From: a virus
Taxonomy: Duplodnaviria; Caudoviricetes
Virus record (IMG/VR): IMGVR_UViG_3300020042_009006
Coordinates: 1 to 60,847 of that record
DNA: 60,847 bases
Direction: 5' to 3' (one strand)
The notes below the pieces were generated by a model. That model did no database searches and had not been told where the DNA came from. It saw only the letters and a program-made list of their open reading frames with translations. Shown piece after piece: positions 27,782 through 57,290 of this stretch. Each line of letters starts with the position of its first letter. The first letter of the stretch is position 1. Both the position numbers and the translations under genes were made by a program.

Positions 27782-27917
27782 AAGTTAGGGTTGCCTAACT
27801 AAACACTTCCAACGAATAGTAAGAAGTCCTGAAATACATTCCCGCTGCCAACTTCGCACGAAACTTCGCCAGCCAAAAAATGAAAAATAGTTTTCTGGAA
27901 CTCGCCAAAAAATAAAG

Positions 27918-27946
27918 TTGCGTCAAAAATAAAATCGTGCTACCTT
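27918..27946 (+). promoter_or_regulatory. SigA-type promoter; similar ones at 28598, 30333, 32412, 33977, 35723, 37169, 49070
   Basis: TTGCGT-17-TACCTT with extended -10 TG; the others are TTG(C/A)NN-16/18-T(A/T)NNNT. Confidence 0.7.
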
Positions 27947-28003
27947 TCTCTAAGCAACATTTCTTTATAGAGAGAGGACACCAAAATCCACACGATACAA
28001 CTA

Positions 28004-28567
28004 ATGCTCGTAGAGGCAGATAACGCAGTAGGGGCTTTTCAGCAAGTAGCAAGCAAACTAGACGAGGGCGAGCCACGCTGGTCTGATTGGCACGAGGCAG
28101 TAAATGACCCAAGCACTCTCAACTTTGCTGGTCGCTGGTCAGGGGAAGTTTTTATGACCCCAGAGCAACTAAAAGCAAGAGATGAAAAACAAGAAGTAGA
28201 TGTATCTGAAAATCCAAACTACCTACGCTTTTCAGACGACCCTAATCTTGCTGACGAAGTTATCCAGCGTTTCATCTCTTATCGTATGAACGAGATTGAG
28301 AGCATAAAGAAAACTCTCGCAACTGACTACGCCAGCATTGACCTAATGTCTTATCTCTATGACCCAAACAAAGAGCCAGACTTCCGAACAACAGGTATGG
28401 GTCTTTACTACATAAAGAAACTTGTATCTCTTTATGGAAACGATTGGACTTCTGATACTGCTATCTACGACTTAGAGGATTGGAACGCAAGCCTCACTAC
28501 TTTCTATAAGCGTGTCCAAAATAACCCAGAGCGTCAGTTCCTAATACCTGTTGATTTTCACCATTAG
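28004..28567 (+). CDS. Hypothetical protein (possible upstream in-frame ATC start at 27986)
   Basis: WSDW..AGRWSG and VDFH motifs; AGAGGA RBS lies 7 nt before ATC 27986. Confidence 0.7.
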   Translation: MLVEADNAVGAFQQVASKLDEGEPRWSDWHEAVNDPSTLNFAGRWSGEVFMTPEQLKARDEKQEVDVSENPNYLRFSDDPNLADEVIQRFISYRMNEIESIKKTLATDYASIDLMSYLYDPNKEPDFRTTGMGLYYIKKLVSLYGNDWTSDTAIYDLEDWNASLTTFYKRVQNNPERQFLIPVDFHH

Positions 28568-28680
28568 CGAACAAAGCAAAAAACTTTTAGAAAGTGCTTG
28601 CGAAAACTAAATAGTCGTGTAAAGTCAGATGTATTGGAAAACTCCAATGAACCAAAAACCAAGTTAGGACGAAAAACAAA

Positions 28681-29193
28681 ATGACCCCAGAGTTCGGAAC
28701 ACTAGACCCAGAAATGGCAGAGGCAGTAGCAACTGCTGAAACTATGGGTTCTAGCAACGCACCAAAGGTTGTAGGAAAAGGTATCTACCTAGAACTACAC
28801 ACAGCAGACGAGATGAACACCACCCAAGTTCTGATTACCCCAGAGGGTATTGACGAAAAGGGTAAGGCAGTATCTATGGCTATTATCTATCGCACCATTT
28901 CAGAGTGGTCGCCTCGCAGACAATGGCGAGTAAACTTTGTGCGACCAAAGGCAGAGAAGTCTGCCCCAGAGAACACAACTGAAATGTTGGCAGAAGTAGT
29001 GAAGTTCTTAGAGCGTCAGATGATGTATTCTGCTGACCTAACACTACGCAACAACACTCCTATCGTTTTTGAGGTAAGCAACATTGACCTCGCAGATGTA
29101 GCAGAGTGGAAAGCACCAGCACCAGCCCTACGCAGACTTGCCAAAGCAAGAACAGCAGTAGGTTTCCCAACCGAGTTTTACAAGAACCACTAA
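28681..29193 (+). CDS. Hypothetical protein
   Basis: Own promoter and AGGACGAA RBS. Confidence 0.7.
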   Translation: MTPEFGTLDPEMAEAVATAETMGSSNAPKVVGKGIYLELHTADEMNTTQVLITPEGIDEKGKAVSMAIIYRTISEWSPRRQWRVNFVRPKAEKSAPENTTEMLAEVVKFLERQMMYSADLTLRNNTPIVFEVSNIDLADVAEWKAPAPALRRLAKARTAVGFPTEFYKNH

Positions 29194-29219
29194 GTCATAA
29201 GAGAGGACGAATAACTAAA

Positions 29220-30230
29220 ATGACTACAACAACTGAAACAACAGCAACCAGCAAACTACACGCTGACCTTGATGAACTAATCAAGGGTGTAGTTCTACAC
29301 AGCACTAAGACAGAGGCTATCCCTGCTATTATGGAAACGCTAATGCCTATCGCTGGTCGTGCGAACCTGCGAGCAAAAGCAGGAACAGCAAAACCAAAGA
29401 CAGCAAAGGCGACCAAAGTGGTAGAACCTATGATTGGCGAGAGCCAATACCTGCGTCCAAATGGACAGGCTTACTATTCTCGTATGTGGGGCGAACACTC
29501 CGACATTGAGGTTCTAAGAACTGCGAGAGCAAACAAGAAGTTCATTTTGCTCTATGGAAGTCCGGGCTGTGGTAAGACAGCACTTGTTGAGGGTGCGTTC
29601 CCAGACGAACTTTACACCTTGCTTGGAACAGGCGACACCGAAGTTTCAGACTTCGTAGGTGGCTACATACAGACACCGAGTGGTGGCTTTGAGTGGGTGG
29701 ACGGAGTTCTGACCAAAGCAGTAGCAGAGGGCAAGGTTCTCTTGATTGACGAAGTTGGTCTGATTGACCCAAAGGTTATGTCTATCGTTTATGGTCTTAT
29801 GGACGGACGAGATGAACTAACTATTTCGTCTAACCCAGAGCGTGGCGTAGTAAAAGCCCAAGAGGGTTTTTATGTAATCTGTGCTACCAACCCGAACGCT
29901 CACGGAGTGCGTCTATCAGAGGCACTTCTATCTCGTTGCCTAATCCAAGCAGAAATGACTACTGATTGGACGCTTGCTAAGAAGTTGGGCGTTCCAGCAC
30001 CAGCAGTTTCAGCAGGTATGAACCTCGCTAAGAAACAACTAGCAGGTGAAGTATCTTGGTCGCCTCAAATGCGAGAACTCCTAGCGTTCCGTGATGTATC
30101 AGAACTCTTTGGTATGAAGTGGGCGATTGGAAACTTGCTTGCGTCAGCACCAGAGATTGACCGAGTTGTGGTCGCTGATGTATTCCGTAGAGTGTTCGGT
30201 GATGATGATTGCCGACCAGCAAAGATTTAG
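29220..30230 (+). CDS. MoxR/CbbQ-NorQ-like AAA+ ATPase
   Basis: GSPGCGKT Walker A, LLIDE Walker B, ATNP, ALLSR. Confidence 0.9.
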   Translation: MTTTTETTATSKLHADLDELIKGVVLHSTKTEAIPAIMETLMPIAGRANLRAKAGTAKPKTAKATKVVEPMIGESQYLRPNGQAYYSRMWGEHSDIEVLRTARANKKFILLYGSPGCGKTALVEGAFPDELYTLLGTGDTEVSDFVGGYIQTPSGGFEWVDGVLTKAVAEGKVLLIDEVGLIDPKVMSIVYGLMDGRDELTISSNPERGVVKAQEGFYVICATNPNAHGVRLSEALLSRCLIQAEMTTDWTLAKKLGVPAPAVSAGMNLAKKQLAGEVSWSPQMRELLAFRDVSELFGMKWAIGNLLASAPEIDRVVVADVFRRVFGDDDCRPAKI

Positions 30231-30393
30231 TGGTTCGTCCTACTAAATCGGGGAGTGCCGAGTTTCCCCACTTGGCACTCCCCACCCTAAAAACTTCATA
30301 AAAACTATTTTTCATTTTTGCTAGAAATGAACTTGCGTAGAAAATAAATCTGTGCTTTACTTATCTTGTTAGCCTAACGAAAGGACAAAACAA

Positions 30394-32220
30394 ATGGCTC
30401 ACTATGTATCACGACTAGACACACGCACCAGCACTACTCCCCCAGAGTGGTTGGCTACTTGCTCACAGATTGGGCAGGTTGTAAATGCTTGGGCAGGTCG
30501 CCACGACCTAGTTGTTTATGCTGGCTCTGACGCTGGCTATGGACATACTGCTTGCTTTATCAAATCGTCTGCTGAAATAGAAATCAACATACCTATCGCT
30601 TTTGGCGAGTGGGCAACCCCAGCGTTCGTTGGCGATTTCACAGACAGAGCCACGCAGTTTGATTGGGCTAATGCCACAGGCGTTATCTACCACGAGGCTT
30701 TACACGCTCGCTATTCAGAGTGGGACATTGAGGCATTAGAGGCTATGCCAGAACAAGTGTTCTCTGTGTTCTCTGTATTGGACGAGGCTCGCATTGAGCG
30801 TTATGGCGTAATCGCTATGCCAGAGAACCAGCCCCTACTAAGAGCGTCTGCTATGAACCTTGCTCTGGGCGACCTTGATGATAAGGCTATTGCTGAAATG
30901 TCTGATGTTCGTCAGGTTGCGTTTGTCTGTGCTTTGGCTATGGCGAGAGTGGACGCTGGCGTTCTAAAACTCTCTGATGTTCGTGCGACCTACGACAAAG
31001 TGATTGAGGTCATTGGTCAGGAACTCTTTGATAACCTACGCTCTATCTGGGTTGAGTTCCAGAAACTACGCACTAGCGAAGTTGAGCGTGGTCGTGAACT
31101 TGCTGAAAAGTGGTTGGCACTTCTAAACGAGGCTGACCCACAACCAGAGGGGGGCTGTGAGTTCCCTAGTGGTGAGGGTGAGGGTGAGGGTGAGGGCGAA
31201 CCAGACCCAACCAAGTCAGGCAAAGGCAAAGGCAAGTTCCTCAAAGAACTCAAAGACGCTATGAACGAGGACGCAGACAACTCTGCTACTGATGTTGAGC
31301 AGAGCCTACAAGACCAGCAGGGCAAAGAGGAACAGCAGAAAGAACTCAAAGAGCGTGGCTCAAAGAGCGAGCGTCAGGCTAAGGCTAAGAAAGAGGCTGG
31401 CAAAGTTTTCTCTAACTCGTCAAGTGGTGGAACAGGAACTACCTACTCCACGCTACAAGAACAGCGTTCGCCAAAAGGCAACGAACGAGCAAGTGCTGTT
31501 CGCCTAGCCCAGATGTTGGACAAGGCAAAGTATCGTGAGCGTTCTATCACCGAAGTCAAGAGCGTTCTGCCACAAGGTCGTCTGAAAACTCGTATCGCTA
31601 TTCAGAACTCGGCTATGAAGTCAAAGGGTATTCACTCGGAACTTCCAGCGTGGCGACACACTAAGCGTAAGCATACTGACGACCCAACTCTCTCTATCGG
31701 AGTAATGGTGGACATTTCAGGTTCTATGTCGTCTGCTATGGAAAGTATGGCTACTACTGCTTGGGTTCTATCAGAGGCAGGTCGCAGAGTTCAGGCGAGA
31801 ACTGCTATGGTCTATTTTGGTCAAGATGTATTCGCAACTCTCAAAGTTGGTCAGAAGTTGGAACAGGTTTCGGTATGGTCAGCACCAGACGGAACGGAAG
31901 TTTTTGGTCGTGCCTTTGACGCTTTGGACGGACACCTAAACCTCGTCTATGGCGAGGGAGTGAAGTTGCTGGTCATTGTGTCGGACGGACACTACACAGG
32001 CAACGAAACACAGAACGCCAAAAACGCTATCAAGATGTGTGCCGATAATGGCGTGGCTGTTCTCTGGCTCGCACCGAACACAGGTTGGTCTGGTTCTATG
32101 GGTGGAACGATTGTCGGTCAGAACGGAGTGGTCGTAGAGAACCTAGATGTGAACGAGATTGCTAATGTGATTGGTAAGTCTGCGACCAACGCTCTACTGA
32201 AAGTTGCGTCTGGTATGTAA
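30394..32220 (+). CDS. vWA-domain partner protein (CobT-like) with N-terminal HEXXH
   Basis: YHEALH, EARIE, acidic GEGE linker, VDISGSM MIDAS, VSDG. Confidence 0.85.
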   Translation: MAHYVSRLDTRTSTTPPEWLATCSQIGQVVNAWAGRHDLVVYAGSDAGYGHTACFIKSSAEIEINIPIAFGEWATPAFVGDFTDRATQFDWANATGVIYHEALHARYSEWDIEALEAMPEQVFSVFSVLDEARIERYGVIAMPENQPLLRASAMNLALGDLDDKAIAEMSDVRQVAFVCALAMARVDAGVLKLSDVRATYDKVIEVIGQELFDNLRSIWVEFQKLRTSEVERGRELAEKWLALLNEADPQPEGGCEFPSGEGEGEGEGEPDPTKSGKGKGKFLKELKDAMNEDADNSATDVEQSLQDQQGKEEQQKELKERGSKSERQAKAKKEAGKVFSNSSSGGTGTTYSTLQEQRSPKGNERASAVRLAQMLDKAKYRERSITEVKSVLPQGRLKTRIAIQNSAMKSKGIHSELPAWRHTKRKHTDDPTLSIGVMVDISGSMSSAMESMATTAWVLSEAGRRVQARTAMVYFGQDVFATLKVGQKLEQVSVWSAPDGTEVFGRAFDALDGHLNLVYGEGVKLLVIVSDGHYTGNETQNAKNAIKMCADNGVAVLWLAPNTGWSGSMGGTIVGQNGVVVENLDVNEIANVIGKSATNALLKVASGM

Positions 32221-32473
32221 AAGAACTCCGTTAGCAGATTGAGCAACTGCCCCCCAACTCTCGCTCTCTGCTAACGGACTAGAACCCCCGATACTTTTTA
32301 TTGTCCTTTCTTGTATCGGGGGTTCGCCTTTATCTGGGTTAGGTTTTCTGGAAACTATTTTTCATTTTTACAAGAGAGATTAGACACACCGAAAAAAGTT
32401 TTGATTAGGTATTGCGTATTCGTGAAAAGTGTGCTTTACTCTTACTAAGCACAAACGAAAGGACGAAACCAAA

Positions 32474-32755
32474 ATGTGTGAAACTTGCGAACAGAACATA
32501 GACGAGGCAGACGACCGAGAACTGCTACTTCTATCGCTGGCTATGATTGGTGGCTTAGTTGAGAACTATGTTGAGGAAGGCTACTGCGACCCTGTGATGT
32601 ATAAGGCTGTGAAGTTGGCAGAGCGTATCACCCTCAAACTAGGGATTGCTGAAATCACCGAGAAGTTTACTTTCCTGAAAATCCAAGCAGGGGAAATCAT
32701 TGAGGCAACTATTGAGCGTGAGGGTCTTGACCTCAAACGAGAGGATTGGTCATAA
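32474..32755 (+). CDS. Hypothetical protein
   Basis: GAAAGGAC RBS. Confidence 0.65.
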   Translation: MCETCEQNIDEADDRELLLLSLAMIGGLVENYVEEGYCDPVMYKAVKLAERITLKLGIAEITEKFTFLKIQAGEIIEATIEREGLDLKREDWS

Positions 32756-33558
32756 TGCCAAATTGGGTTTACAACAGCGTTTCTGTGTATGGAACAAAAG
32801 AAACTATTGAGGCGTTCTACGAAAAGGCGATTGCCCCACACCCTGAAACTTTTGACGCTGAAACTAAAAAGGTTGTCTATACAGACAAGCCAGAGTTCTC
32901 GTTTTGGAACTTTGTTTCCCCACCACAAGACGCAGTAGAGAGTGGCGAATACTTTGGCACTCACGGCTGGGCTGACGGCGAGAAAAAGGGTGATACCCCT
33001 GTGAATTGGTATAATTGGAACAACGATAATTGGAACACCAAGTGGGACGCTTGTGATGTTTATGGCGAAACAACTATCAACAAAGACGGAACTGCTGAAC
33101 TAAGCATTTCTTACAACACGGCTTGGTCTATTCCCGAACCTGTTATGACGGCTATGGTTGAGCAACACCCAGAACTAACTTTCCATTTTTCGTGTGAAGA
33201 AGAACAGGGTTGGGGTGCTGACTATTCAGGCACGGACGGCGAGTTGGTGGAAACCAAATCTTGGGACATACCCGACAGCCACTCCGACTATGTAGAGCGT
33301 GATAATGAGGACGGCTGTATCTGCTCTCACTATGACGACGAGGACGATTGGTATGCCGATTGCCCAAGAGAAACCAAAGAGTTCTTTGTAGAGATTACAC
33401 GGACTTACAAAGTCATAGCCAAAGACGCTGAACAGGCGTGGGAACTAGCAAACGATACTGCTGACGGCTTGGAACTACAAACGGACGAAACTACCTGCGT
33501 GGTCAAGAACGAGAACGGACAGCGTTTGTATCCGATAGCAGAGAACGGCGTGGAGTGA
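32755..33558 (+). CDS. DUF1281/YubB ferredoxin-like domain protein
   Basis: MPNW, WYNWN..NWNTKWDA, TAWSIP. Confidence 0.75.
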   Translation: MPNWVYNSVSVYGTKETIEAFYEKAIAPHPETFDAETKKVVYTDKPEFSFWNFVSPPQDAVESGEYFGTHGWADGEKKGDTPVNWYNWNNDNWNTKWDACDVYGETTINKDGTAELSISYNTAWSIPEPVMTAMVEQHPELTFHFSCEEEQGWGADYSGTDGELVETKSWDIPDSHSDYVERDNEDGCICSHYDDEDDWYADCPRETKEFFVEITRTYKVIAKDAEQAWELANDTADGLELQTDETTCVVKNENGQRLYPIAENGVE

Positions 33559-33761
33559 TGAGCGAACAGGTGATACGGATACGGCTTGGTCATACAAGCG
33601 ACCCCTACACAGAACTAACGAACGGCTCGCTTGGAACGAAGTTGGGTGAACGCATTGACCCCTACGGAGATTTGATTGTTCGTGTGAAGTGGGACAATGG
33701 TTCGTCTATGAGCCTGATTGACGGACACGATAGTTGGACGGAGTTCGTGGAAAATGATTAG
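33555..33761 (+). CDS. DUF4314-like protein
   Basis: DPY..G..GT..D..V.WDNGSSMSL..D. Confidence 0.6.
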   Translation: MMSEQVIRIRLGHTSDPYTELTNGSLGTKLGERIDPYGDLIVRVKWDNGSSMSLIDGHDSWTEFVEND

Positions 33762-34051
33762 CACCAAGACGGGGAATACCCTGCTGGAAACGGAACTTGA
33801 TTGCCGAGAGTGTGGTGCGATAGTCGTGGACTTCTATGAGGTTGAGGGAGTTTCAGACGGACGAGGATACATAAGTTGTTATGAGTGTGGAGAGATAGCC
33901 GAAGTTGAGATTGAGTGAAGTATTTTTCATTTTTACAAGTGAGATAAAAAAAAATAAAAAAACTTGTGAAATGAACTTGACTTATCAGAACTACCTGTGC
34001 TTTACTTATAGAGCAACACACCCAACGACAATCTAACGAAAGGCAAGTCCA

Positions 34052-34423
34052 ATGGGAAACGCAACTAAGAACCAAAGCACCACCACTATCAGCACCACAA
34101 CTCCAAATGTGGTAGTCCTGAAACCAGCACTCCAAAAGCAAGTAAAGAACTTGCGTGATGGGCGTGATTTAGGCAAGCAAGCAAAAGAGATGAGCGAGAA
34201 CGCTCGTCAGGCTCTACTTGACGCACTTGGCTCAATCGCCTCTGACCTTGTTGGAACTGACGCTAAGGGTAAGCGTCTGATTGCTGTAAAGGTAATCCCC
34301 TCGTCCGAAAAGATTGACTTTGAGCGTATGGCAGTAGAGAACCCAGAACTCTACGAACTTGTCCAGACCTACAAAGTCGCCAAAGGTGCTGGTCAGCCTA
34401 CTCTGCGAGTAGATGTTCTCTGA
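34052..34423 (+). CDS. Hypothetical protein, paralog family A
   Basis: IDFERMAVENPELYE, similar to 41762 and 46936. Confidence 0.7.
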   Translation: MGNATKNQSTTTISTTTPNVVVLKPALQKQVKNLRDGRDLGKQAKEMSENARQALLDALGSIASDLVGTDAKGKRLIAVKVIPSSEKIDFERMAVENPELYELVQTYKVAKGAGQPTLRVDVL

Positions 34424-34609
34424 CCAGAACTAGCAACACCCCTATAACTAAATAATCCCCTTTCCGAATAACGCTGGCAGACTTCCTATCGTTTGCCAGC
34501 GTTATTTTTTATCTGGCGATTGGGAAAACTATTTTTCATTTTTACAAGAGAAATAAAAAACACACGAGCCTACTTGTGCGAAGTTGCTTATACCTGTATA
34601 GTCGCTTGT

Positions 34610-35074
34610 ATGAATACAACTTTACTTTTTATCCCCATTGTCTATCTACTAGCAGTTAGCCTACCTATCGTTTTCGCTGACCTGCGTGTAGCACGAGTGC
34701 CTAACAAATACACTCTCCCTGCTCTCTACCTGTGGCTAATCTGTTCTACCACCTACGCTGTTCTATCTGGCGAGTGGCTTTGGTCGCTTGTGCTACCTAT
34801 CATCTTTGGAATAGCGACTTTGCTTGTTGGAGTTTATTTCTCTGGCAAGGGAACTCTGGGTATGGGTGATGTGAAGTTGCTCGTCTTTATGGGTCTATCT
34901 CTATCTTGGAAGTCTGCTTGGGTCTGGTTGCTACTCCCTGCTGGCTCGTTGCTAATCGCATTTGGGATTTTTCTTTTCTACTACTTCACACGAACAAACA
35001 AACTTTCCATAAGACTTGCCCCTGCTATCTACTTCGTGTATCTTATTCTTACAGCAACACTATTTCTGAACTGA
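34610..35074 (+). CDS. Prepilin peptidase (A24 family)
   Basis: Multi-TM; ADLR..RVPN and GMGDVKL aspartate motifs. Confidence 0.85.
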   Translation: MNTTLLFIPIVYLLAVSLPIVFADLRVARVPNKYTLPALYLWLICSTTYAVLSGEWLWSLVLPIIFGIATLLVGVYFSGKGTLGMGDVKLLVFMGLSLSWKSAWVWLLLPAGSLLIAFGIFLFYYFTRTNKLSIRLAPAIYFVYLILTATLFLN

Positions 35075-35088
35075 AAGGACAACTGAAA

Positions 35089-35379
35089 ATGCTAATGCGA
35101 CACGCACTCGGCGAGGTCTTACGAGAACTCCGAAACGAACAGGGTCTAACCCTGCGACAAACTGCTAAGACTTCTTGTATGGCTCTTGGCTACCTCTCTG
35201 AAATAGAACGAGGACACAAGGAAGTTTCGTCCGAAGTCTTGGACAACTTGGCTCGTGGGCTTGGATACGAAACACACGAGGTAATCATCTTGGCTGGATA
35301 CCGACTAGGTGGCTTGGACAGAGTGCCGAACACACCGAGAGAACTTATTGAGCAATACACCGACTTAGTGGCTCGCTAA
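35089..35379 (+). CDS. ClgR-like XRE HTH regulator
   Basis: LGEVLR..R..QG.TLR..LGYLSEIERG.KEVSSE. Confidence 0.8.
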   Translation: MLMRHALGEVLRELRNEQGLTLRQTAKTSCMALGYLSEIERGHKEVSSEVLDNLARGLGYETHEVIILAGYRLGGLDRVPNTPRELIEQYTDLVAR

Positions 35380-35406
35380 GAACACCGAGAGAATAGGAAC
35401 GAACCA

Positions 35407-35613
35407 ATGAACGAACTAAGACTATTGACCAGAACCGAACACGAACACCTAGCCGACTTGGTATTCCAAGAACTACGCAAAGCAACTCACGAGGACACTA
35501 AGCGTATGTGGTTATCTATCGGGGACAAGATTGACGCACAGGTAATCCGAGAGGGATACTCCAACGCTGACGGACGAGAGAACGAAGAACCAGAGATAGA
35601 CCCGACACCATAA
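35407..35613 (+). CDS. Hypothetical protein
   Basis: ATAGGAA RBS. Confidence 0.6.
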   Translation: MNELRLLTRTEHEHLADLVFQELRKATHEDTKRMWLSIGDKIDAQVIREGYSNADGRENEEPEIDPTP

Positions 35614-35788
35614 TCTTTATTCGGTAGCCCGACCCTCTGGGTCGGGTTATCTTTTTGTCGGCTCGGTCTGGAAACTATTTTTCATTTTTACAAGTGGAGT
35701 AAAAAATAATCACCGACCCTACTTGCGAAAACTTCTAATGTTGGTATTCTTATCTCACGACAAAAACCTACTGAAAGGAAAAAATCAA

Positions 35789-36307
35789 ATGGGTATGGAT
35801 GTCTATGGAAAAAACGCCGTCAATCAAACGGGCGAGTATTTTCGCCGTAATGTTTGGGGCTGGCGACCACTCTGGGATTACTGCCTAGACCAACACGGCG
35901 AACTTGCCGGCAAGGTAGAACACGGACACAGCAACGACGGCGACGGGCTTGACGGCGAGGACAGCGTAGCATTGGCTCGCCTCATAAAGACGGCTATCGC
36001 TGACGGCTCGGCGAGTGCCTACATTGAGAAACGCAACGGATACCTCGCAGGCTTGGAACGACCTGCTTGCGAACTCTGCGAGGGAACGGGTATTCGCTCT
36101 GACCAAGTTGGAGTAGAGAACGGAATGCCTGACCGAGAGTTGCCTGACGAGATGAAAATGCTCACGGGTCGCTCGCACGGGTTCTGTAATGCTTGCTCTG
36201 GTGAGGGTAAGCGAGATGCTTGGGAAACTAACTACTTCCTTGACCTTGACGACCTTGCCGAGTTTGCCGAGTTTTTGGAAAACTCTGGTGGGTTCTCAAT
36301 CTGTTAG
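35789..36307 (+). CDS. Hypothetical protein with DnaJ-like CxxCxGxG repeats
   Basis: MGMDVYG, FRRNVWGWRPLW, CELCEGTG, CNACSGEG. Confidence 0.7.
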   Translation: MGMDVYGKNAVNQTGEYFRRNVWGWRPLWDYCLDQHGELAGKVEHGHSNDGDGLDGEDSVALARLIKTAIADGSASAYIEKRNGYLAGLERPACELCEGTGIRSDQVGVENGMPDRELPDEMKMLTGRSHGFCNACSGEGKRDAWETNYFLDLDDLAEFAEFLENSGGFSIC

Positions 36308-39963: not shown

Positions 39964-40365
39964 ATGGCAGTTATAGATTGGGACGAAGTGGAATACGCAC
40001 TAGACGACGCTAAGGCTATCACTTGGGACACTTGCCACAAGATTTATGTTCTTATGGACGACGAGCAGGTTGCCGAAACTCGTGGCTATGGTTATGGTGA
40101 TGAGCCTGATAGTTTCTTTACTTGCGAAGAGAAGACACCGAGCCAAATGCTCTCCATACTAAAAGAGTGGTTTGAGAAGTCCTGTTCCCTGAAGTTTATT
40201 CAGGCAGTAGAAACTAATCACGAAGACGCTAACGCTGGCTATACGAGCCTGATTGAGCAGGGTGCTACCGAATACGAAGTCTGCTGGATTTGTGGCACCG
40301 AAGGTTGCGAAGGTGAGTGCGAAGACGAAGACGAAGACGAAGAAGACGAAGACGAAGAAGATTAG
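39964..40365 (+). CDS. Acidic hypothetical protein
   Basis: GATAGGAA motif; WDTCHKIY; poly-ED tail. Confidence 0.7.
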   Translation: MAVIDWDEVEYALDDAKAITWDTCHKIYVLMDDEQVAETRGYGYGDEPDSFFTCEEKTPSQMLSILKEWFEKSCSLKFIQAVETNHEDANAGYTSLIEQGATEYEVCWICGTEGCEGECEDEDEDEEDEDEED

Positions 40366-40561
40366 TCCAAGTCGCTAGACACCGAAATCCCCCTAGTCAA
40401 AATGGTTAGGGGGATTAGTCTTGCCCAGCACGAACCTTGTTCGTCTAGGCATTTTTCATTTTTTCTAGATGTAGGAAAATAATAATGAAAACACGGAAAG
40501 AAATGTCCGTGGTCAAGGTTATTATTTATGTAGCAACACAAACCAAACGATAGGAAACCAA

Positions 40562-41007
40562 ATGTCCAAGAACACAAAATGCCTAGCCTGTCTAGCAACC
40601 TTTACCAACTCCTACAACTTGTCTTTTTGTGGCGAGTGTGGGGCTGACCAGCAATACCTAATGGAATACCAAACAAACACGGAGAGAACCTTGCCAACTC
40701 AAAACGAACTACTGATTGCTCGCCTAGACGCTCTAATCGCTGAACTAGAACTGACCAAGCAAAACCTAAAAGACCTTGCTGACCTAGTGGGGATTGACCT
40801 GACTACTTCCCCTAGTGGTGATAACTAATGACCAACAAACCAAAAGCAACACCAGAACTATTGGTAGGTCGCCAAGCAAGTTGCTCTATGATTGGCGTTC
40901 AGGGATTTCACGCTATCAAGGCATCAAGCCTAGCCCTAGCGTTCTTTGAGTATCGCCCTGAACACGATTACGATTTCTACTATTGTGGCTGTATTGGGTG
41001 GGACTAG
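40562..41007 (+). CDS. Two hypothetical ORFs (40562-40828; 40828-41007 not in track)
   Basis: GATAGGAA motif; TAATG coupling; second ends YCGCIGWD. Confidence 0.6.
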
Positions 41008-41217
41008 ACCCCCAGACACCGAATAAAAACTTCCCCCCTACTTATTCCAAGGTTCGTAGGGGGGAACTTTTTTGGCTGTCGTTCGTCTAGGGATTTTTCA
41101 TTTTTACTAGATGTATAAAAACTTCATTAGAAGTTGAGATAAATCCAAACCAAAAGTGGTTAGATAGTTATGTAAGCAAAAACGCTTACTCAAGTTAGAT
41201 AGGAAATCTAAACCAAA

Positions 41218-41565
41218 ATGACCAAGCAAGTAATCGTAATCACACCAGAACACGAAGTATCTGTCCAGCAAATGCCAAGCACCAGCCCTGATGAATACAA
41301 CTTTCTAAACACGGCAGTAGCAGGTTGGATACAGGCAGTCGCTCTAGCAGATGACCTAGAAGGTATTACCCTTTGGGTCAATGAAGAAGGTAAGTTGGAT
41401 AACCTGCCCTACAACCCCCTAGCAACTCTCCTTTGGGAAATGTCCTATGGCTTTACTGATGTAATCTGTGGCACAGCAGTCCTAACAGGTGGCACTGATG
41501 ATGAAGGTGAAACACTTCCCCTAACTGATGAGCAGGTCGCCAAAATCTTAGCAGTCGTGAAATAA
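41218..41565 (+). CDS. DUF3846-like protein
   Basis: VAGWIQAV, VNEEGKL..LPYN..A, ICGT. Confidence 0.75.
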   Translation: MTKQVIVITPEHEVSVQQMPSTSPDEYNFLNTAVAGWIQAVALADDLEGITLWVNEEGKLDNLPYNPLATLLWEMSYGFTDVICGTAVLTGGTDDEGETLPLTDEQVAKILAVVK

Positions 41566-41761
41566 CCAAACACGGAAAAGATACTCTGCCAGAAATGGCA
41601 GGGTATTTTTTTGCCCAGCGTTGAGCGAACTTCGTCTAGCCATTTTTCATTTTTTCTAGATGTAAGACCAAAATACAAAGAACTTGTATTTGATGTCGGT
41701 CGTAGGGTATAGAGTGGTCTTACAGCAAAACGCTGAAACCAAAATCAAGGAGATACCAAAA

Positions 41762-42127
41762 ATGGCAACTGCCAAAACAGCCGAGAAGGCAACCAGCAAC
41801 ACCGAGCCTAAGAAGGCTAGAAGCAACAAGAAGGCAACACCAGCAGTATCAGTAGAACTATCAGCAGAAGGCAAGAAGGCACTAGCCGCTTTCCGTGAAG
41901 CCAAGAAGGCAGAAGCCCTAGCCAAAGAGCAGAAGGAAATGGCAGAACTAGCCCTTCGTGAAGCACTAGGCGACCACAAAGAAGGTCTAGTGGAAGGTAT
42001 GGTCGTAGTCAAGGTTGTAAATGGCAAGAACACTCATTTTGACCGAGAACTAATGAAGGAAATCTTCCCAGAAGCCTACCAAGCAACCCTTCGTGAAACT
42101 CTTTACGATTACCTAAGAACTCTCTAA
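41762..42127 (+). CDS. Hypothetical protein, paralog family A
   Basis: FDRELMKEIFPEAYQ. Confidence 0.7.
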   Translation: MATAKTAEKATSNTEPKKARSNKKATPAVSVELSAEGKKALAAFREAKKAEALAKEQKEMAELALREALGDHKEGLVEGMVVVKVVNGKNTHFDRELMKEIFPEAYQATLRETLYDYLRTL

Positions 42128-42314
42128 CACCGAGAGCCAAGCGAACTCCTGAACTTCGGTTCGGGAGTTTCGTTTTATCTTTTTTTGCGTTTCTTGTAGC
42201 CATTTTTCATTTTTTCTAGATACATAGTAAAAAGTGCGACAGCACTTCACACAAAGTAGATAAATGTCGCCCCCTAATGTAAGAATAGAGATACCAAAGA
42301 GATAGGAACTCAAA

Positions 42315-42527
42315 ATGGCAAACCGAAAAGAACTTCAGCAAGTTATCAAGATTGTAGCCAAGCACGGCTGGTCTATCGCCCTAAACAAGAACAACCATTA
42401 CAAGTGGATAGCCCCTAGTGGTGCGTTCTTCTATTCTTCTAGCACTCCAAGCGATAGGCGTAGCCTAGAACGAATAAAGAGAGATTTACGCCGACTAGGC
42501 TTTGACCTGCGAAAACTAGACAACTAA
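42315..42527 (+). CDS. HicA-like toxin/mRNA interferase
   Basis: GW..NHYKW..P.G..STPSD..L...GF. Confidence 0.65.
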   Translation: MANRKELQQVIKIVAKHGWSIALNKNNHYKWIAPSGAFFYSSSTPSDRRSLERIKRDLRRLGFDLRKLDN

Positions 42528-42538
42528 GGAGATACAAA

Positions 42539-42826
42539 ATGGCACTCACTCACGGAGATTACAACTGCGATAGTTGTGGAACTTGGTGCGACCTAGACCC
42601 TGTGGCACTTCTAGGCAGAACCCCTAAACTCTATGGCTTGGAAGACCCCGCTAAAGTCCTAGAACTAACTCACTTCTGGCTCTGTGGCGATTGCTCGCCT
42701 GATTACCCCAATGGTGCTAAAGACTTCTTCACCGAAGATTACTTTGAGATAGAAGAACCCTACTGCTCTGGGTGCGAGGTTGAGCCTGTGCTGGCTTGGG
42801 GAAACTCCTGTGCCTACTGCGACTAA
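42539..42826 (+). CDS. Cys-rich hypothetical protein
   Basis: Four CxxC; AAGGAG RBS. Confidence 0.6.
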   Translation: MALTHGDYNCDSCGTWCDLDPVALLGRTPKLYGLEDPAKVLELTHFWLCGDCSPDYPNGAKDFFTEDYFEIEEPYCSGCEVEPVLAWGNSCAYCD

Positions 42827-43011
42827 CTAAAAGAACTCCCCCTGATAAGTCAGGGGGAACTTTTTTTTCGGCTTTTCGTCTAGCCATTTTTCATTTTTAC
42901 AAGAGAGATAAAAATACTTCGTTAGAAGTAGTTGTAATGTCGGTGGTTTATGGTTTGATAGTTATGTGAGCAACACCGCCCACAAAACTAAAAAAGATAG
43001 GAAGTGCCAGA

Positions 43012-43407
43012 GTGTCCAACGACAACCTAGCAAACCAACTAGCAGAACTACTGAACGAGTTGGAAGAAGTATCAAGCGAACTAAACGACATTGACCTAGA
43101 TGTTGCCAGCGAACTAAAGTCAGCAATAGACGAAGCAGAACAGGCTAAGTCCAACGCCGAAGAAGCAGTCAGCAATCTAGAAGATGTAATCAGCAACCTA
43201 GAAGCAATCTCTCTACCAGACCCTAGCGACCTAGAGAGTGCCACAGACCGACTAGACAAAGCAGTTGCCACAATCAAAGAACTAGCCGAGCAGTTGGAAA
43301 CTCTAGCCCCTAAGTCCCTAACCCTAATCGTCAAGCAGGGTTCGGCAGAGCAGAAGTTTTATCTTCACCCAGACAGCCCAGCCGTGATTGAGATTATCAC
43401 CGAGTAA
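43012..43407 (+). CDS. Acidic coiled-coil protein
   Basis: GATAGGAA motif; heptad pattern. Confidence 0.65.
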   Translation: MSNDNLANQLAELLNELEEVSSELNDIDLDVASELKSAIDEAEQAKSNAEEAVSNLEDVISNLEAISLPDPSDLESATDRLDKAVATIKELAEQLETLAPKSLTLIVKQGSAEQKFYLHPDSPAVIEIITE

Positions 43408-43597
43408 TCTCTCGCTACGAAGAAGTCCCCTTGACCTTAGGAAAGTCAGGGGGATTTTTTTATGCCCAGATTTTTTTGCTTTTCGTGTAGGCATTTTTCA
43501 TTTTTACTAGATAAACTAAACAAAAATGCCAACACGGCATTTTATTTTTTTTTATCTCTGCTACATTGGAACTAGCCAATAGATAGGAGAAACCAAA

Positions 43598-44114
43598 ATG
43601 GCTGAACAGAAAACATTTCCTAGCGTAGTGGAATACCTAAAACAACGAGAGCAAAAACTAGCAGACCTTATAGAGTGGATGTCGGCAACTAACTCCAACT
43701 CCATTGTGGTCAAACTAACCAGAACAGCGTTAGCAGAAGTTAGACACGCTCTACTGATTGCCGAACTAAACGAGCAAAAGACAAAGGAAAACTAAAATGG
43801 CTAAAATCGCAAACTACGAGATAGAGGCACACATCTCGGCACTAGCCCCGTTCATCAACTACAACAGCAGTATTGTTGCTAATCGTGAAAATGGGTTCTA
43901 TCGTGTTTGGCATTGGGAAACACAAATCCTAACTTACAACATCAACACGGGTGTTATAGACCACCTATACTCTCACAATCGCTCTCAAACCACTAGCACC
44001 CTAGTCGGTCGTATCGTTCGTAATCTGCCCCGTCAAGCAGTCGTAAAGTTTCTAGTGGAAACCGAACTTGGCAAGTATGACCGAACTCGTATCGTGAAAA
44101 TGGCGAGATTGTAA
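43598..44114 (+). CDS. Two hypothetical ORFs (43598-43795, 43797-44114)
   Basis: GATAGGAG and AAGGA start motifs. Confidence 0.6.
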
Positions 44115-44306
44115 AAGTCCAAAAGAGATAGCCACGAACTTCGGTTCGTGGTTATTTTTTAGCCTCGTCATCACAAAGGCATTTTTCATTTTTTCTAGAT
44201 GTATAAAACACTTCGTAAGAAGTTGTTGATAAATGTAGGTGGTCGGGTATAGATTGGAAACACGGGATAAGGAAAAGCCAAGTCCCCCAGACAGATAGGA
44301 AGTCTA

Positions 44307-44619
44307 ATGACTACTTACAAGTGCCTAAAGTGTGGTGCTACCACAACAGACCCAAAGCACGCTCTAATCAAGTGGTTCCACGCTAACTGCCCAGCAGAGA
44401 AAGGGGGGAAGTAAAATGGAAGTCAAGTATCCAGAAGTCAAAAAAGTCAAGTTGATTGGTGAAGACGGAAACGCCTTTGCTATTCTTGGTCGGGTAATGA
44501 AAGCGATGAAAGTCGCAGGATTACCGAAAGAAGTCATTGACGCTTACTACACGGAAGCCACAAGTGGCGATTATGACCACTTGCTACAAACCACTATCAA
44601 GTGGGTCAAGACCAAGTAA
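44307..44619 (+). CDS. Two small ORFs (44307-44414 not in track; 44416-44619 GEDGNAF-motif phage protein)
   Basis: GATAGGAA motif; LIGEDGNAFAILG..SGDYDHLL. Confidence 0.65.
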
Positions 44620-44794
44620 AGCCCCGTCAGGTATTCGGTCAATACCTAAAGCCCCCTTGCTCAAAGAGAGCAGGGGGGTTTCCACTTGTCCAGAGAAACG
44701 CATTTTTCATTTTTGCGAGAGTAGGGGAAAAACTTTTTGGAAATCGGGAAAAAATCTCAAACAACTTTAGTTATCTCTAGTGGAAAGGAAATAA

Positions 44795-45316
44795 ATGTTC
44801 ATAGAACGCCCAGAAGACGCAGAGCAAGCAGAACTATTTGCTATGGGTCTAATCAAAGAACCGAAAGACAATGGCACGCTACTCCTTGTCCCTTGTCGCC
44901 ACAAAGTATTCTGCCGAACACACGGAACACTTTGGATACATCTAAGAACCAACAAATCCAAAATCAAAATCAAAACAAGAGAGATACTAGGTAAATGACT
45001 AACCAGAACCCAGACCCAGACCAGAACCCCCTACTGAACCCTAAGTTCCTTGTTGGAGAGAACCCAGACATCAAAGGTTTCCTAGCGTGGCTGTTTGACC
45101 CAGAAGTAGATAAAGCGTTTCAGGAAGCGTTCCCGATTGACGAGAGTGAGCAAGATGAGAACTAAACTAACCCCAGAGCAAATCACCGAACTAGATAAAT
45201 ACCAGACACGGAAAACTTTTGACTTGATAAGAGTTGGTATGGTCTTAGGTCTAGTCCCTTGGTCTAACAAGATTACGATTACTCGCAAAGTTCGCAAACT
45301 GAAAACTGAAATCTAG
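44795..45316 (+). CDS. Three short ORFs (44795-44998, 44995-45165, 45155-45316)
   Basis: GAAAGGA RBS; overlapping start and stop codons. Confidence 0.45.
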
Positions 45317-45494
45317 CCAAGCCTAGCCTAGTAATCCCCGTCATTACTAGGCTCGGCAGGGGTGGTTGGCTAGGCATTTTTCATTTTTCCTAGATGAATA
45401 AAAAAACTTTTGGAAAATGCTAGACACGGCAACTTTTATTTTGTTAGGCTGGTCTTGTTGGAACAATCCAACGCTGAGAGATAGGAAACTCAAA

Positions 45495-45832
45495 ATGAAT
45501 AAGTATGTAATCCGTAGAGCAGTGCTAGGTATCGTAATCACTCCCCTAGTTGCTCTGGTCTGGCTAATCGGTATCGCTGTGCTAATCGGTATGGGTGCTG
45601 AACCAACTGCTAGTGCTAGTCAAGTCTGGGTAGATGGTCTATGGCTTGGCGTGGCAGTATCGGTGGTATTCGCTGGAAGTGTCTGGGGTAAGCGATAATG
45701 GCTAACAAAGATGTCTGGCTAATAGTTGCTTGCTCAATGCTGGTATCTGGCTCGGTAGGTCTGGGCTTTATACTTGGTAGAAACTCCGTCTATCGCAAAC
45801 TGCGAACACGGACTAAAAAATGGCTTGATTAG
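45495..45832 (+). CDS. Two small membrane-protein ORFs (45495-45698, 45698-45832)
   Basis: GATAGGAA motif; TM helices; TAATG coupling. Confidence 0.6.
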
Positions 45833-46070
45833 ATTGTCCTATCCAATCTAATCGGGAGAGATGAAACTCTCTATCGGGGCTAGGCGAAAAGATACCCCCC
45901 TATTTATCGCCTAGCCCCACTTTTATTTTTGCTTTTTCTTTTAGGCATTTTTCATTTTTTCTAGAGTTATGGAAAACTTCGTGAGAAGTTGTAGATAAAT
46001 GTCGTTGGCTGGGTGTAGATTTACTACACGGGATAAATAAAAAAAATCCCCTGAATAGATAGGAAACAAA

Positions 46071-46597
46071 GTGAAGTATTTTCTCGCTGGACTAGGTGCT
46101 TACTCAATCGGGGTTGGCTCTCTATCCTTTATGGAACACAACCACCCGAACTCTCTGCTGGTCGGTTGGTTCTTGGGCCTGCTCTTGCTGGTCGGCTCTA
46201 TGGCTCTATTCTTAGGTGGTAAGAAGTAATGACTACTAATGAAGACAACCTAATCACAATCCCTATTAGCATTGACCGAAACTTGCTCTGGCAATCCACC
46301 TTTGGTGGTGGCTGGGAACACTCGTCTTGGTGGGTAGGGCTGAAATACGGAGTTGGTGGCGATTGGGACAAGATTGGCGACGGAACTTTTACTCTAACTG
46401 CCTGCGACCCTGATGATGATGACGAACCTGAAGTCAAGAAGACCCTGACCATAGATGACCTTGCTCGTGCTTGGGGTGTGGCTCTTACAGAGAACTACCA
46501 CCACTGCGGGCAACGCTGGGACTTGGAAGACCCTGACCATTGTGTAAGCGACGGAATACTCCAACTAGCGTTCTTCGGTGAGATTATCTACGGATAA
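46071..46597 (+). CDS. Small membrane ORF (46071-46229) plus hypothetical protein (46229-46597)
   Basis: GATAGGAA motif; second ends D..LQLAFFGEIIYG. Confidence 0.65.
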
Positions 46598-46787
46598 CAA
46601 CACGGCCTCAAAAAAATCTCTCGGCTTCGGTTCAGGGATTTTTTTTGATTATTTTTTTTGTTTGTCTAGGCATTTTTCATTTTTACAAGAGAAGTTGAGA
46701 AACTTCTAGAAGTTGTTGATAAATGTCGGTGGTCTGTGGTTGACTTCTTATGTAGGCAGAAATGCTGAATGATGATAGGAAGTCAAA

Positions 46788-47268
46788 ATGACCACTCCAA
46801 TTTGTAGCGATTGCGGAAACTTTATTGCTGGTAAAGTTTTCCAAACTCTATCCCCTTACACAAACTCTAAACTCTGTGGCAAGTGCCACGCTGAAGAACT
46901 AGAGATGACCATTACAGAAGAACAGGAATAAACCAATGACCACAAACACCGAAACCAACACGGCCAAGGCTACGCTGAAAGTCGTTGCCCTGATTGACGA
47001 ACTAACTGATGTTCGTGCCGAGATTACTCGCCTTGAGAAAATCAAGACTGCCCTAACTGCCGAAGTCAATGAAATCTTTGATAAGGCTGGCGTTGATACT
47101 CTGGTTCATCGCAACATAGATGTTGCTCGTAGAGATTGGCGTGAGCGTTCTGGAACTGATGAAAAGAAGTTAGCCGAGATGTTCCCCGAAGTCTATGAGC
47201 AGACCCGCAAGACCACTCGCTACTCCGTCCTAGTGTCGCTCTATCGCAAGGCAGTCGCCAAGAAGTAG
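46788..47268 (+). CDS. Zinc-finger ORF (46788-46931) plus paralog family A protein (46936-47268)
   Basis: GATAGGAA motif; TDEKKLAEMFPEVYEQ. Confidence 0.65.
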
Positions 47269-47447
47269 AGCAACACCGCTGATCAACAAACTCCCGATTA
47301 GTCGCAAGGCTGGTCGGGAGTTTTTTTGGTCGGCTTTTGGTCTGGGCATTTTTCATTTTTTCTAGATGACTGGGGAACACTTCGTTAGAAGTGGAAACCC
47401 TGTTTGTTTTTTGATAGGCTGAAACTCCAAACGAGATAGGAACTCAA

Positions 47448-48063
47448 ATGTCAAAAATCGCAAACCCTTACAACAACTTCTCTGCTGAAACTCTTGGCTA
47501 CGCCATAGAGGAGGCTTATCGCCAACTCTCTCTGGGTGGCAACCCTGACCGCCTACTCCCTATGATTGAGCAGATGAGCGAGGTCTTAGAGCGTAAGCGT
47601 AAGACTGACTACTGCCAACACGGCGTTTTTCTCTATGGAGATGTTTCTCCGTCTTGCTGGGAGTGTGAGGTCTAATGGCTCTCAACAAGGCTGAACAGGC
47701 TAGGGCTAGGGCTGAACGCTCTGCCTTGTCCCTAGTCCTGCGTGAGCGTGCTAGAAGCAACGCTTCGGGGGTTCACAATAACAAAGGTGCTAGGCGTGCG
47801 AGAACTCGCTCTGCTAGTATCGCTAAGGCTGTATCTCAATGGAAAGTAGGTTCGTAATGCGTTGGTTCTGGTTAGGTCTTTACAAGACTTCACGGGTCAT
47901 AACACGGGTGATGTTTGGGCTGGGTCATAAGGCTCAATGGCTAGGCTGGAAAGCCTATGACAAGGCTGGGCTGGGTGGTGGCGTGGTTCGTGGTCGTAGT
48001 CGTAAGCCTTTGACTGCTATCTGGCGTGCGTGGCGTAAGTTGCTGGCTCGTGTCCAATCGTGA
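47448..48063 (+). CDS. Short ORFs (47448-47675, 47675-47857, about 47857-48063)
   Basis: GATAGGAA motif; TAATG couplings; last two are basic. Confidence 0.55.
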
Positions 48064-48329
48064 AGCGTTGGGGGTCGTGCTTACTTCGCTGGGTGGGTTC
48101 TTCGTATTCTTGGGAGTAGGTGAGTGGGTGCGTCATAACCATTTGGGTTGGGGGTCGCTGGCTTTGGCTGGGCTGTTGTTCTTTTTTGGGTCGTTGCTGA
48201 AACGCTGATTTTTTTTTGGAGTTGGTCTAGGCATTTTTCATTTTTTGGCCTAAACCCTAAAGGGCATAACACGGTGATTAGTAAAAAAAAACTAACCCCC
48301 TCACTCGAAGGGGGTCAGCTTTTTTCTGG

Positions 48330-57288: not shown

Positions 57289-57290
57289 TC

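Follow-up and report, generated by a model that had tools for sequence, protein, structure and literature searches.

What is the role of a 13-bp sequence that recurs in identical form between the genes of a single region of a phage genome? The question is raised by a 60,847-nucleotide stretch of DNA, the IMG/VR record IMGVR_UViG_3300020042_009006 (Duplodnaviria; Caudoviricetes), which we call the window, where the asymmetric 13-mer ATTTTTCATTTTT (the box) separates short genes in an extended array. The original prediction, made from the sequence alone, had offered two readings, i.e. a gene-capture or shuffling platform in which the box is the junction, or a host-takeover region in which the box is an upstream activator or stoperator-like site. 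Taken together these are partly supported. On balance we consider it probable that the box is a regulatory site acting from one face of the helix upstream of early sigmaA-type promoters, inside a hyperplastic array that resembles the promoter early stem-loop (PeSL) regions of T4-type phages. This reading is drawn from the distance between the box and the -35 element, the anatomy of the units and the comparison with related phages.

The box and its distance from the promoter

The window contains 26 exact copies of the 13-mer, 25 on the + strand and one on the - strand (0.01 expected; 0 of 100 shuffles). The + copies lie at 26782 and then, 24 in number, from 30307 to 48233-48245, and the - copy is at 27876-27888, in exact agreement with the count originally given. 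Allowing up to two mismatches gives 33 matches, i.e. the 26 exact copies, none with one mismatch and seven with two (3.87 by chance). No further copies were found in the whole record. The box has no dyad symmetry. From 38547 to 47348 the boxes are 521-725 bp apart, as had been reported, and the two classes of flank that had been described along the array are also present; they read GGAAACT-box-ACAAG[AT]GAGAT on the left and TCGTCTAGGC-box-TCTAGATG on the right. To these we add the boxes at 42886 and 46672, which have mixed flanks, right-type upstream and left-type downstream.

The order of elements in a unit was obtained from an alignment of the 25 + copies and compared with relatives. A stop codon is followed by an intrinsic terminator and then, at a median of ~25 nt from the end of the hairpin stem, by the box. 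Beyond the box there is often the palindrome ACTTCGTnAGAAGT, then a -35 region (GTTGnTGATAAATGTCGGTGG in the window, CTTGACTTTTGTCGGTGG in relatives), a TANNNT -10 sequence (TAGATT, TAGGCT, TAGAAT or TAGACT), a leader, a strong ribosome-binding site (RBS) and one to four genes. The relatives have a canonical CTTGACTTT -35 and a TAGACT or TAGAAT -10 downstream of the box. A hairpin with a T-run lies within 75 nt upstream of 17 of the 25 + boxes, terminator-like sites are enriched in the window (39 against 18.6 expected), and the recurring CCCCTTG/CAGGGGG terminators pointed out earlier are present as hairpins. Taking seven genomes together, we find a hairpin (dG <= -9) with a T-run upstream of 143 of 168 boxes, ending at a distance of 11-80 nt (median 25). 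The first start codon is 69-130 nt past the start of the box in 23 of the 25 + copies; no gene is assigned close to the boxes at 34531 and 48233. Of the 16 cassettes from 38157 to 47348, 13 have the RBS AGATAGGAA (the GATAGGA start motif) ahead of their first gene, and the left cassettes have GAAAGGA. An extended form of the motif, AGATAGGAA(A/C)nnAAATG, is found at 13 first-gene starts from 38258 to 47448.

The predicted order of terminator, box, promoter and start motif is borne out for all of these except the promoter, which is not of consensus sigma-70 form; a strict consensus scan of the window gave no enrichment (13 sites against 20.6 expected). The promoters of the window are recognisable only through comparison with the relatives.

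RNA contigs give a weak hint that the units are real as transcripts. Contigs from two studies both start at 44271, which is 16 nt past the predicted -10 of the unit whose box is at 44181, and stop short of its hairpin, at 44592 and 44621. Of the 24 RNA pieces listed for three metatranscriptomes (X15, X16 and X18), none overlaps a box, and several begin 9-26 nt past a predicted start. The RNA of a fourth metatranscriptome (X17) is that of a 90-95% relative with half its matched sequence diverging, and its contig over the box at 33922 and loose end at 34543 were not interpreted. Those parts of the array without contig cover carry no information.

The relationship between box and promoter was analysed by scoring, for each + box, the best pair of -35 and -10 sequences within 130 nt downstream, and measuring how far the -35 hexamer lies from the end of the box core. 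For 110 promoters in seven genomes the distances peak at 10, ~20, 30-31, 40-42, 51-53, 61-64 and 71-72 nt. The vector strength R is 0.40 at a period of 10.5, a value matched by 0 of 5000 sets jittered by +-5 nt. The phasing persists on removal of G002 (n = 82), of G001 (n = 81), or of both genomes together (n = 53, R = 0.45). When the window is taken by itself, 18 of 25 promoters score well, giving R = 0.73; 11 of the distances are 29-33 nt, three are 42-43, two are 10 and two are 18-22. Intervals of equal spacing between box and -35 have unrelated sequences, and recent copying therefore does not explain the spacing. The distance from terminator to box is far less periodic (R = 0.20, reached by 69 of 5000 jittered sets).

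With the -35 hexamer set at -35 to -30, the centre of the box falls near -51, -61, -72, -82 and -93. The last four of these are the spacing series for CAP at class I promoters. The box thus lies at whole helical turns from the -35, where an upstream element would be placed; this concerns its position only. Its orientation is less constrained. In G001 ten of 41 copies are inverted. Two of these belong to a promoter that points leftward from the left edge of the array; the remaining eight occupy the usual slot after a rightward terminator, and in seven of these a + strand promoter (score >= 10) is found 32-60 nt further on. As the inverted copies keep their slot, a bound factor might fit; neither a core promoter element nor a stoperator would tolerate the inversion. 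The proposal of a host-takeover region with an activator-like upstream site is thus supported by position, phasing and the occurrence of both orientations in one lineage.

Boxes and gene exchange in related phages

Relatives share the layout of the window, each having its own invariant box, of types that include TATTCGTTTTTT, TATTCA, TATTTA and TATCCAC. Written with its flanks, the box of the window is (GGC)ATTTTTCATTTTT(TCTAGA). The corresponding sequences are AGTTTTCATTTTTTCTAATAGA in L098, GATTTTTCATTTTTTCGAAA in L019, GTATTCGTTTTTTC in G001 and G002, GTATTCATTTTTT in G003 and L026, GGTATTTATTTTTTCTG in G004 and GTATCCACTTTTTTAC in G005. A T5-T6 tract is found in the box of every lineage; the non-T positions differ between genomes (G-TATTCG / TATCCAC / TTTTCA). 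Within a genome the sequence is held strictly. All copies of the TATTCGTTTTTT 14-mer in G001 (41 of 41) and G002 (43 of 43) are exact, with no one- or two-mismatch copies, and the 17-mer of G004 has 14 exact copies and one flank variant. The copies are moreover confined to one array, i.e. to 49.9-78.6 kb in G001 (41 of 41; 125.8 kb, 93% complete), to 131.4-145.1 kb in G004 (15 of 15; complete, 153.7 kb) and to 102.5-119.4 kb in G005 (18 of 18). In L026 (~390-427) and L035 (~40-80) the first box of the array comes directly after a poly-T run of at least 38 nt.

The box is not universal among the relatives. Among 25 loci related through the large terminase TerL that have at least 7 kb upstream of this gene, 15 carry a T-rich box of the family in at least three copies, three have CGCGCTCGCGG instead and seven have no dominant repeat. 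G007 is without a T-rich box. The Actinomycetia phage DSL-LC01 (L100, OQ999401) has a syntenic array with neither the box nor a homolog of the array protein with an HTH_3 domain; at 23.6-43.3 kb it has ~25 extended -10 promoters GATTCTAAAGATGTTATAAT(T/A)GAATC, with inverted GATTC/GAATC arms and the RBS ACGACGAAAGGACAA. The likeness of box plus CTAGATGTATAAAA to TCTAAAGATGTTATAAT of DSL-LC01 led us to consider the box as a promoter in its own right; this was rejected as not general, since boxes of the G001 type have no -10 following them and the starts of the RNA contigs lie further downstream. In the G001 array, seven strict TTGACTTT-N15-TANNNT promoters at the TerL-proximal end (76.3-79.5 kb) have no box within 100 nt upstream, and these may be a separately regulated subset.

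Box type is incongruent with the TerL tree. The types TTTTCA, TATTTA and TATCCAC each occur in separate TerL clades, and of the arrays that adjoin near-identical TerL genes some have a box and others lack one. It follows that reassortment has taken place between the early array and the packaging genes, and strictly vertical inheritance of box type within lineages cannot be claimed.

The left part of the array is colinear and conserved, comprising a 170-aa protein, an AAA_5 ATPase, a VWA protein, a 267-aa protein and the HTH_3 protein. No genes of the array are better conserved than those of the ATPase and the VWA protein, both of which follow a promoter with a box (42-70% identity in eight of the eight relatives covering them). 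The right half is patchy among nine relatives, its order being scrambled in G001 and showing local transposition in L098, and three cassettes that are apart in the window are adjacent in L019. In 10 of 11 multigene cassettes the genes differ from each other in phyletic pattern. The neighbouring genes 36484-36738 and 36738-37040 of one window cassette, for example, have 78% and 87% DNA identity to genes of G001 that are 20 kb apart, and the homology stops within a few bases of the gene borders.

The right half of the window array shares 25 homology blocks (>= 120 nt) with eight relatives, none of the relatives compared being over 95% identical across the array. Eleven of these involve genomes with another type of box, and 0 of the 11 reach a box or a promoter; they end at start and stop codons. 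Of the remaining 14, which are with L098 and L019 and so share the box core, five run through a box. The ends at gene borders across box types indicate that genes move without the box, each genome keeping its own type. The unit of exchange is the gene. Alignment of relatives, which the original prediction had proposed as a check, thus confirmed the gain, loss and reordering of cassettes and, in the comparisons across box types, placed the breakpoints at gene borders, not at the box.

A search for relatives by scanning metagenomes with box+CTAGA found three window relatives in 80 compared loci, among the matches listed; these include L148, which is 99% identical to and colinear with the window, and L123, which is 90-92% identical at the left edge only. 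In L113 (1286 nt, coverage 1.6) a sequence 96.6% identical to window 44154-44937 is followed by a module of G001 type, with TATTCGTTTTTT, a CTTGACTTT-type promoter and the RBS GAAAGGGAAAC. The junction lies inside gene 44795-44998. At this coverage it could be a recombinant or an assembly chimera, and it was not used as evidence.

Site-specific recombination at the box is not supported as the source of these exchanges. No tyrosine recombinase (PF00589) was found in the window, G001, G004 or G007, with a control positive in 14 of 14 genomes. Integron cassettes have IntI, attC sites that are imperfect inverted repeats, and no promoters; the window array has no PF00589 match, a box without a dyad, and units with their own promoter and terminator, and so the description 'without IntI or attC' holds. 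In an array of serine-recombinase sites the enzyme should occur together with its sites. The serine recombinase of the window (7604-8308, Resolvase domain) is absent from the complete G004 with its 15 boxes; DSL-LC01, which lacks the box, has an annotated recombinase family protein. The absence of a dyad and of a tyrosine recombinase, the serine recombinase missing from G004, the blocks shared across box types that span neither box nor promoter and the separation of genes from one cassette all speak against a shuffling platform with the box as junction, which is not supported in that form.

A looser form of recombination deserves more attention, in which the terminator-box-promoter modules would act as patches of homology, allowing cassettes to be swapped, deleted or excised as circles. 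The region is certainly hyperplastic. Only two of the 30 small array proteins scanned pass the curated Pfam cut-off (HTH_3 at 35089-35379, and DUF3846), in addition to the larger AAA_5 ATPase and a DUF1281_C protein of the left part, and the 45 array open reading frames (ORFs) include no paralogs; the coding fraction is 68% within 33.9-48.2 kb. The patchy presence and scrambled order of the right half, the box at both ends of the array (n cassettes, n+1 boxes), the boxes joining two flank types and the five blocks that pass through a box are all consistent with such a scaffold. Its precedent is provided by the PeSLs of T4-type phages. In the sections of the published accounts drawn on here, a PeSL is an intergenic terminator hairpin with a strong early promoter for the host sigma factor, AT-rich upstream of the -35, present in dozens per genome in hyperplastic, ORFan-rich regions that vary in content and order (PMC2839356, PMC4122927). 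The window modules likewise combine a stem-loop terminator with an early promoter of host-sigma type in a hyperplastic, ORFan-rich region. They differ from PeSLs as so described in the actinobacterial host, in the hairpin that is upstream of the box and not inside the promoter, in the additional invariant, genome-specific asymmetric box of 13-17 bp phased to the -35, and in exchange junctions located at gene borders, beside RBS and stop codon. The blocks shared with genomes of other box type, which end at the codons and not in the modules, and the dispersal of genes from one cassette are contrary to a scaffold function, which also leaves the helical phasing unexplained. In addition, a stretch of 13 identical bases is shorter than homologous exchange needs in order to be efficient. 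We consider the box unlikely to be there as a recombination scaffold.

Proposed regulatory role of the box and candidate readers

In the reading that we favour, the region is an early gene array of host-takeover type. In each unit the terminator of the preceding unit is followed after ~25 nt by the box and usually ~31 nt later (also ~10, 20 or 42) by the promoter. The latter is probably recognised by the host sigmaA-type polymerase (-35 TTGNNN, -10 TANNNT), and leads into a leader, a strong RBS and one to four short unrelated genes. The box itself would be a cis-regulatory DNA site, neither part of the core promoter nor a recombination core. Its position on one constant side of the helix, as seen from the -35, makes it most likely that a sequence-specific factor sits there and either contacts RNA polymerase or bends the DNA towards it. 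All the early units could thereby be switched together, being either boosted at the start of infection or shut off later. The binding of a protein, its contact with the polymerase and the sign of the effect we infer from the arrangement of sequences.

A factor bound to the box, or the T-runs of the box as a pause signal, might instead stop read-through from the preceding unit and keep the units separate. The closeness of the box to the terminator stem (a median of 25 nt in the 143 boxes with a hairpin) would suit such a roadblock, as would the orientation of all 24 in-array window copies with transcription. There is also a parallel in the stoperators of cluster A mycobacteriophages, which are 13-bp asymmetric sites in short intergenic spaces, have over 20 copies mostly in one orientation, and differ between relatives (PMC9283540). 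As far as the sections of that account drawn on here go, stoperators are distributed genome-wide in temperate phages, are read by an immunity repressor, and work in one orientation, losing function when reversed (PMC9283540). The boxes are by contrast limited to a single array of 14-29 kb in G001, G004 and G005, they are phased to the promoter and far less to the terminator, the first has no terminator before it, and the eight internal inverted copies in G001 are nonetheless in the slot. The stoperator-like reading fails on this distribution and orientation. Scans of the array proteins with Pfam and PHROGs, none of them a search aimed at repressors, revealed no such repressor; they gave the HTH_3 protein, which at 96 aa is too short for the two-domain repressor of stoperators. 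A role as insulator is improbable.

The face-of-helix dependence could also arise with no dedicated factor, if a T-tract bend or a direct UP-like contact with the C-terminal domain of the polymerase alpha subunit strengthened the promoter. The T-rich box with its T5-T6 tract in every lineage would be in keeping with this, and the box at 26782 is at the distance of an UP element, ~10 nt before the -35. Yet the non-T positions are invariant within a genome and different between genomes, which a bend alone would not demand, and most copies are centred near -72 or beyond, where the usual range of UP elements stops short. A protein-free element is thus quite unlikely. Finally, a site for another strand-specific transaction, i.e. 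a sequence-specific nick as in the nicked genomes of T5-type and phiKMV-type phages or a DNA-entry site, would account for the enzyme-like invariance of 13-17 bp and the strong strand bias, but it leaves the confinement to the array, the promoter slot, the -35 phasing and the inverted G001 copies unexplained and is very improbable.

By analogy, the closest in kind to the box appear to be the T4-type PeSL modules and class I activator or UP-like sites. Class I activator sites, UP elements and the sites for phi29 p4 are all upstream DNA, AT-rich or bound by a protein, that acts only from one face of the helix, and the early promoters of T4 have UP-like parts and are subject to modification of the alpha subunit by Alt. 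The box differs from class I and UP-like sites in being asymmetric, invariant and repeated before 15-43 promoters of one phage, and actinobacterial polymerase is not known to work with sites of this kind. The start-associated sequences (SAS) and extended SAS (ESAS) of cluster K mycobacteriophages are 13-bp asymmetric sequences found in one orientation in the non-structural half of the genome (PMC3203893). The start motif AGATAGGAA of the window shares GATAGGA with the SAS GGGATAGGAGCCC; the SAS, however, lies 3-7 bp before the start codon, in the position of an RBS (PMC3203893), and the box 69-130 nt before it, upstream of the promoter. No published description of the box was found, either by its motif strings or under conserved intergenic motifs of actinophage early promoters.

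Several proteins were considered as readers of the box. Sigma70_r2 is absent from five records in which the control was positive; there was no match to the T7-type RNA polymerase PF00940, though here the positive control was also silent. The only recognised DNA-binding protein of the array, the HTH_3 protein, was rejected; its recognition helix ALGYLSE(I/V)ERG is unchanged across three types of box. No homologs of it were found in the phage collection, DSL-LC01 included. Its operator may be the ACTTCG palindromes or ACTTCGTnAGAAGT. The latter is directly upstream of the -35 region in many cassettes (e.g. 39880-39893, 44211-44224 and 45975-45988), and ACTTCG/CGAAGT shows a 2-4x enrichment in the array of every genome but L098, where the recognition helix of the HTH_3 protein is different. 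The enrichment of GACAC and ACACGG motifs between box and -35 is uneven across genomes. A fusion of WhiB with a WhiA-type helix-turn-helix (HTH) encoded in the window was also rejected, as the form is not conserved; the long WhiB of G001 and G005 has a different, Cys-rich C-terminus. A PHROGs scan of ten conserved array proteins assigned a function to the HTH protein only, and Atlas look-ups of two conserved array proteins were uninformative. The reassortment of box type and TerL makes a reader in the structural module unlikely, and an array-linked reader or a host factor would fit better.

A number of points weigh against a regulatory role. No reader was found among the candidates screened, and the HTH_3 protein diverges most in L098, a locus with the same box core as the window, and is present in all seven arrays examined, including that of G007 without a T-rich box. 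About eight of 23 strict-type promoters in G001 have no box within 100 nt upstream, and such promoters can therefore exist without it. The last box (48233) has no recognisable promoter and the first (26782) no terminator before it, and the box is nearer to the terminator than to the promoter. Three of the inverted G001 copies, at 36-38 nt, are placed between two peaks of the phasing. The complete invariance of the box goes beyond what the sites of transcription factors usually show. The promoters are computational calls, the modules within and between genomes are not fully independent, and the RNA data are assembled contigs from four metatranscriptomes, which cannot prove 5' ends.

It is possible, if doubtful, that each lineage of this widespread group of freshwater actinophages has a private promoter code, in which an invariant enhancer-like site of 13-17 bp would be read by a dedicated factor acting on sigmaA promoters at whole-turn distances. 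Candidates for the factor would be an array-linked phage protein, a protein delivered with the virion, or the alpha subunit of host polymerase modified by a packaged Alt-like ADP-ribosyltransferase. A code of this kind would switch 15-43 early units at once and, as genes are exchanged without the box, would decide which incoming genes can be expressed.

Early transcription in phages of Actinobacteria is little known, least of all in the abundant freshwater lineages, and the arrays present a testable grammar of terminator, private box, phased sigmaA promoter and RBS, repeated 15-43 times per genome. A dedicated reader, if there is one, would add to the phage transcription factors a new one that recognises a long asymmetric site, and could provide orthogonal pairs of box and factor for expression tools in Actinobacteria. 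The maintenance of a uniform regulatory signal in a hyperplastic ORFan region while genes are swapped singly bears on the domestication of genes by phages.

The phage and other features of the window

The source of the window is a large phage of lytic type infecting freshwater Actinobacteria. The IMG/VR record is estimated to be 45% complete, so that the window is ~45% of a genome of ~130 kb. It encodes a class II ribonucleotide reductase, ThyX, dCMP deaminase, two WhiB proteins, an endolysin-like protein, the large terminase and the portal. By TerL the closest named record is DSL-LC01, which is metagenome-assembled (72% identical), followed by Microbacterium phages (63%); there are 441 TerL relatives in IMG/VR, several of 125-154 kb. 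The array sequence is present in at least 14 DNA runs from at least 10 studies, mostly freshwater, the runs X1-X14 containing 75-86% of its words, and among control genomes the WhiB family had a match in Corynebacterium only. Gene content, TerL neighbours, freshwater runs and WhiB distribution together therefore indicate an actinobacterial host. A megablast of the array against the phage collection gave no match, and a search of IMG/VR with the extended box gave a single chance match. The features of the array are collected in Table 1.

Table 1. Coordinates in the window of the array, its boxes and associated features.
Feature	Position	Strand	Remarks
Whole array, early-gene region with box between units	26782..48245	+	~24 units, 45 predicted ORFs
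Box 1	26782..26794	+	~10 nt before TTGACA-16-TATACT; no preceding terminator
Inverted box	27876..27888	-	divergent region, leftward gene 27453-27725 / rightward gene 28004-28567
Left-part core genes, MoxR-like AAA_5 ATPase and VWA protein	29106..32220	+	conserved, colinear in 8/8 relatives covering region
Box preceding VWA gene	30307..30319	+	exact 13-mer
Box	32357..32369	+	exact 13-mer
Box	33922..33934	+	exact 13-mer
Box preceding long leader of HTH_3 gene	34531..34543	+	exact 13-mer
HTH_3 (XRE-type) protein	35089..35379	+	only recognised DNA binder of array
Box	35677..35689	+	exact 13-mer
Box	36385..36397	+	exact 13-mer
Box	37113..37125	+	exact 13-mer
Box	38157..38169	+	exact 13-mer
Box	38547..38559	+	exact 13-mer
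Box	39173..39185	+	exact 13-mer
Box	39841..39853	+	exact 13-mer
Box	40451..40463	+	exact 13-mer
Box	41093..41105	+	exact 13-mer
Box	41642..41654	+	exact 13-mer
Box	42202..42214	+	exact 13-mer
Box, mixed flanks	42886..42898	+	exact 13-mer
Box	43493..43505	+	exact 13-mer
Box of best documented unit	44181..44193	+	exact 13-mer
Predicted promoter of 44181 unit, TTGATA-18-TAGATT	44226..44255	+	-10 at 44250-44255
Two genes of 44181 unit	44307-44414 and 44416-44619	+	under RNA contigs 44271-44592, 44271-44621
Hairpin closing 44181 unit, CCCCCTTGC...GCAGGGGGG	44652..44678	+	from sequence
Box	44702..44714	+	exact 13-mer
Box	45376..45388	+	exact 13-mer
Box	45947..45959	+	exact 13-mer
Box, mixed flanks	46672..46684	+	exact 13-mer
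Box	47348..47360	+	exact 13-mer
Last box	48233..48245	+	then two-way terminator 48295-48315; no recognisable promoter or gene

Outside the array there is a full-length tmRNA gene at 5853-6193 (Rfam 149 bits, tag AESRSAFALAA), which adjoins a tRNA-Asn gene at 6195-6267; three further tRNA genes (10759-10830, 10947-11023 and 11554-11627) bring the number of tRNAs to four. The fusion considered above as a reader is a 174-aa protein at 10244-10768 with a WhiB domain and a WhiA-type C-terminal HTH (Pfam E 9e-14 and 4e-9), and the second, short WhiB is at 3912-4226. The ORF at 57249-60845 (at least 1199 aa) runs off the end of the window, and has a part like a head maturation protease and a part like the ADP-ribosyltransferase Alt; this suggests a packaged, injected modifier of host proteins.

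To the right of the last box, at 48846-48990, there are ~15 tandem units of 10 bp (TGTGTCCACT-like), and a strong shift in AT skew occurs at 48-50 kb. These repeats are possibly an origin or a packaging site. Relatives have other iterons at this position, namely TTCGTATCCAAA in L035 and L036, and GTGTCCTAATGA in L023.

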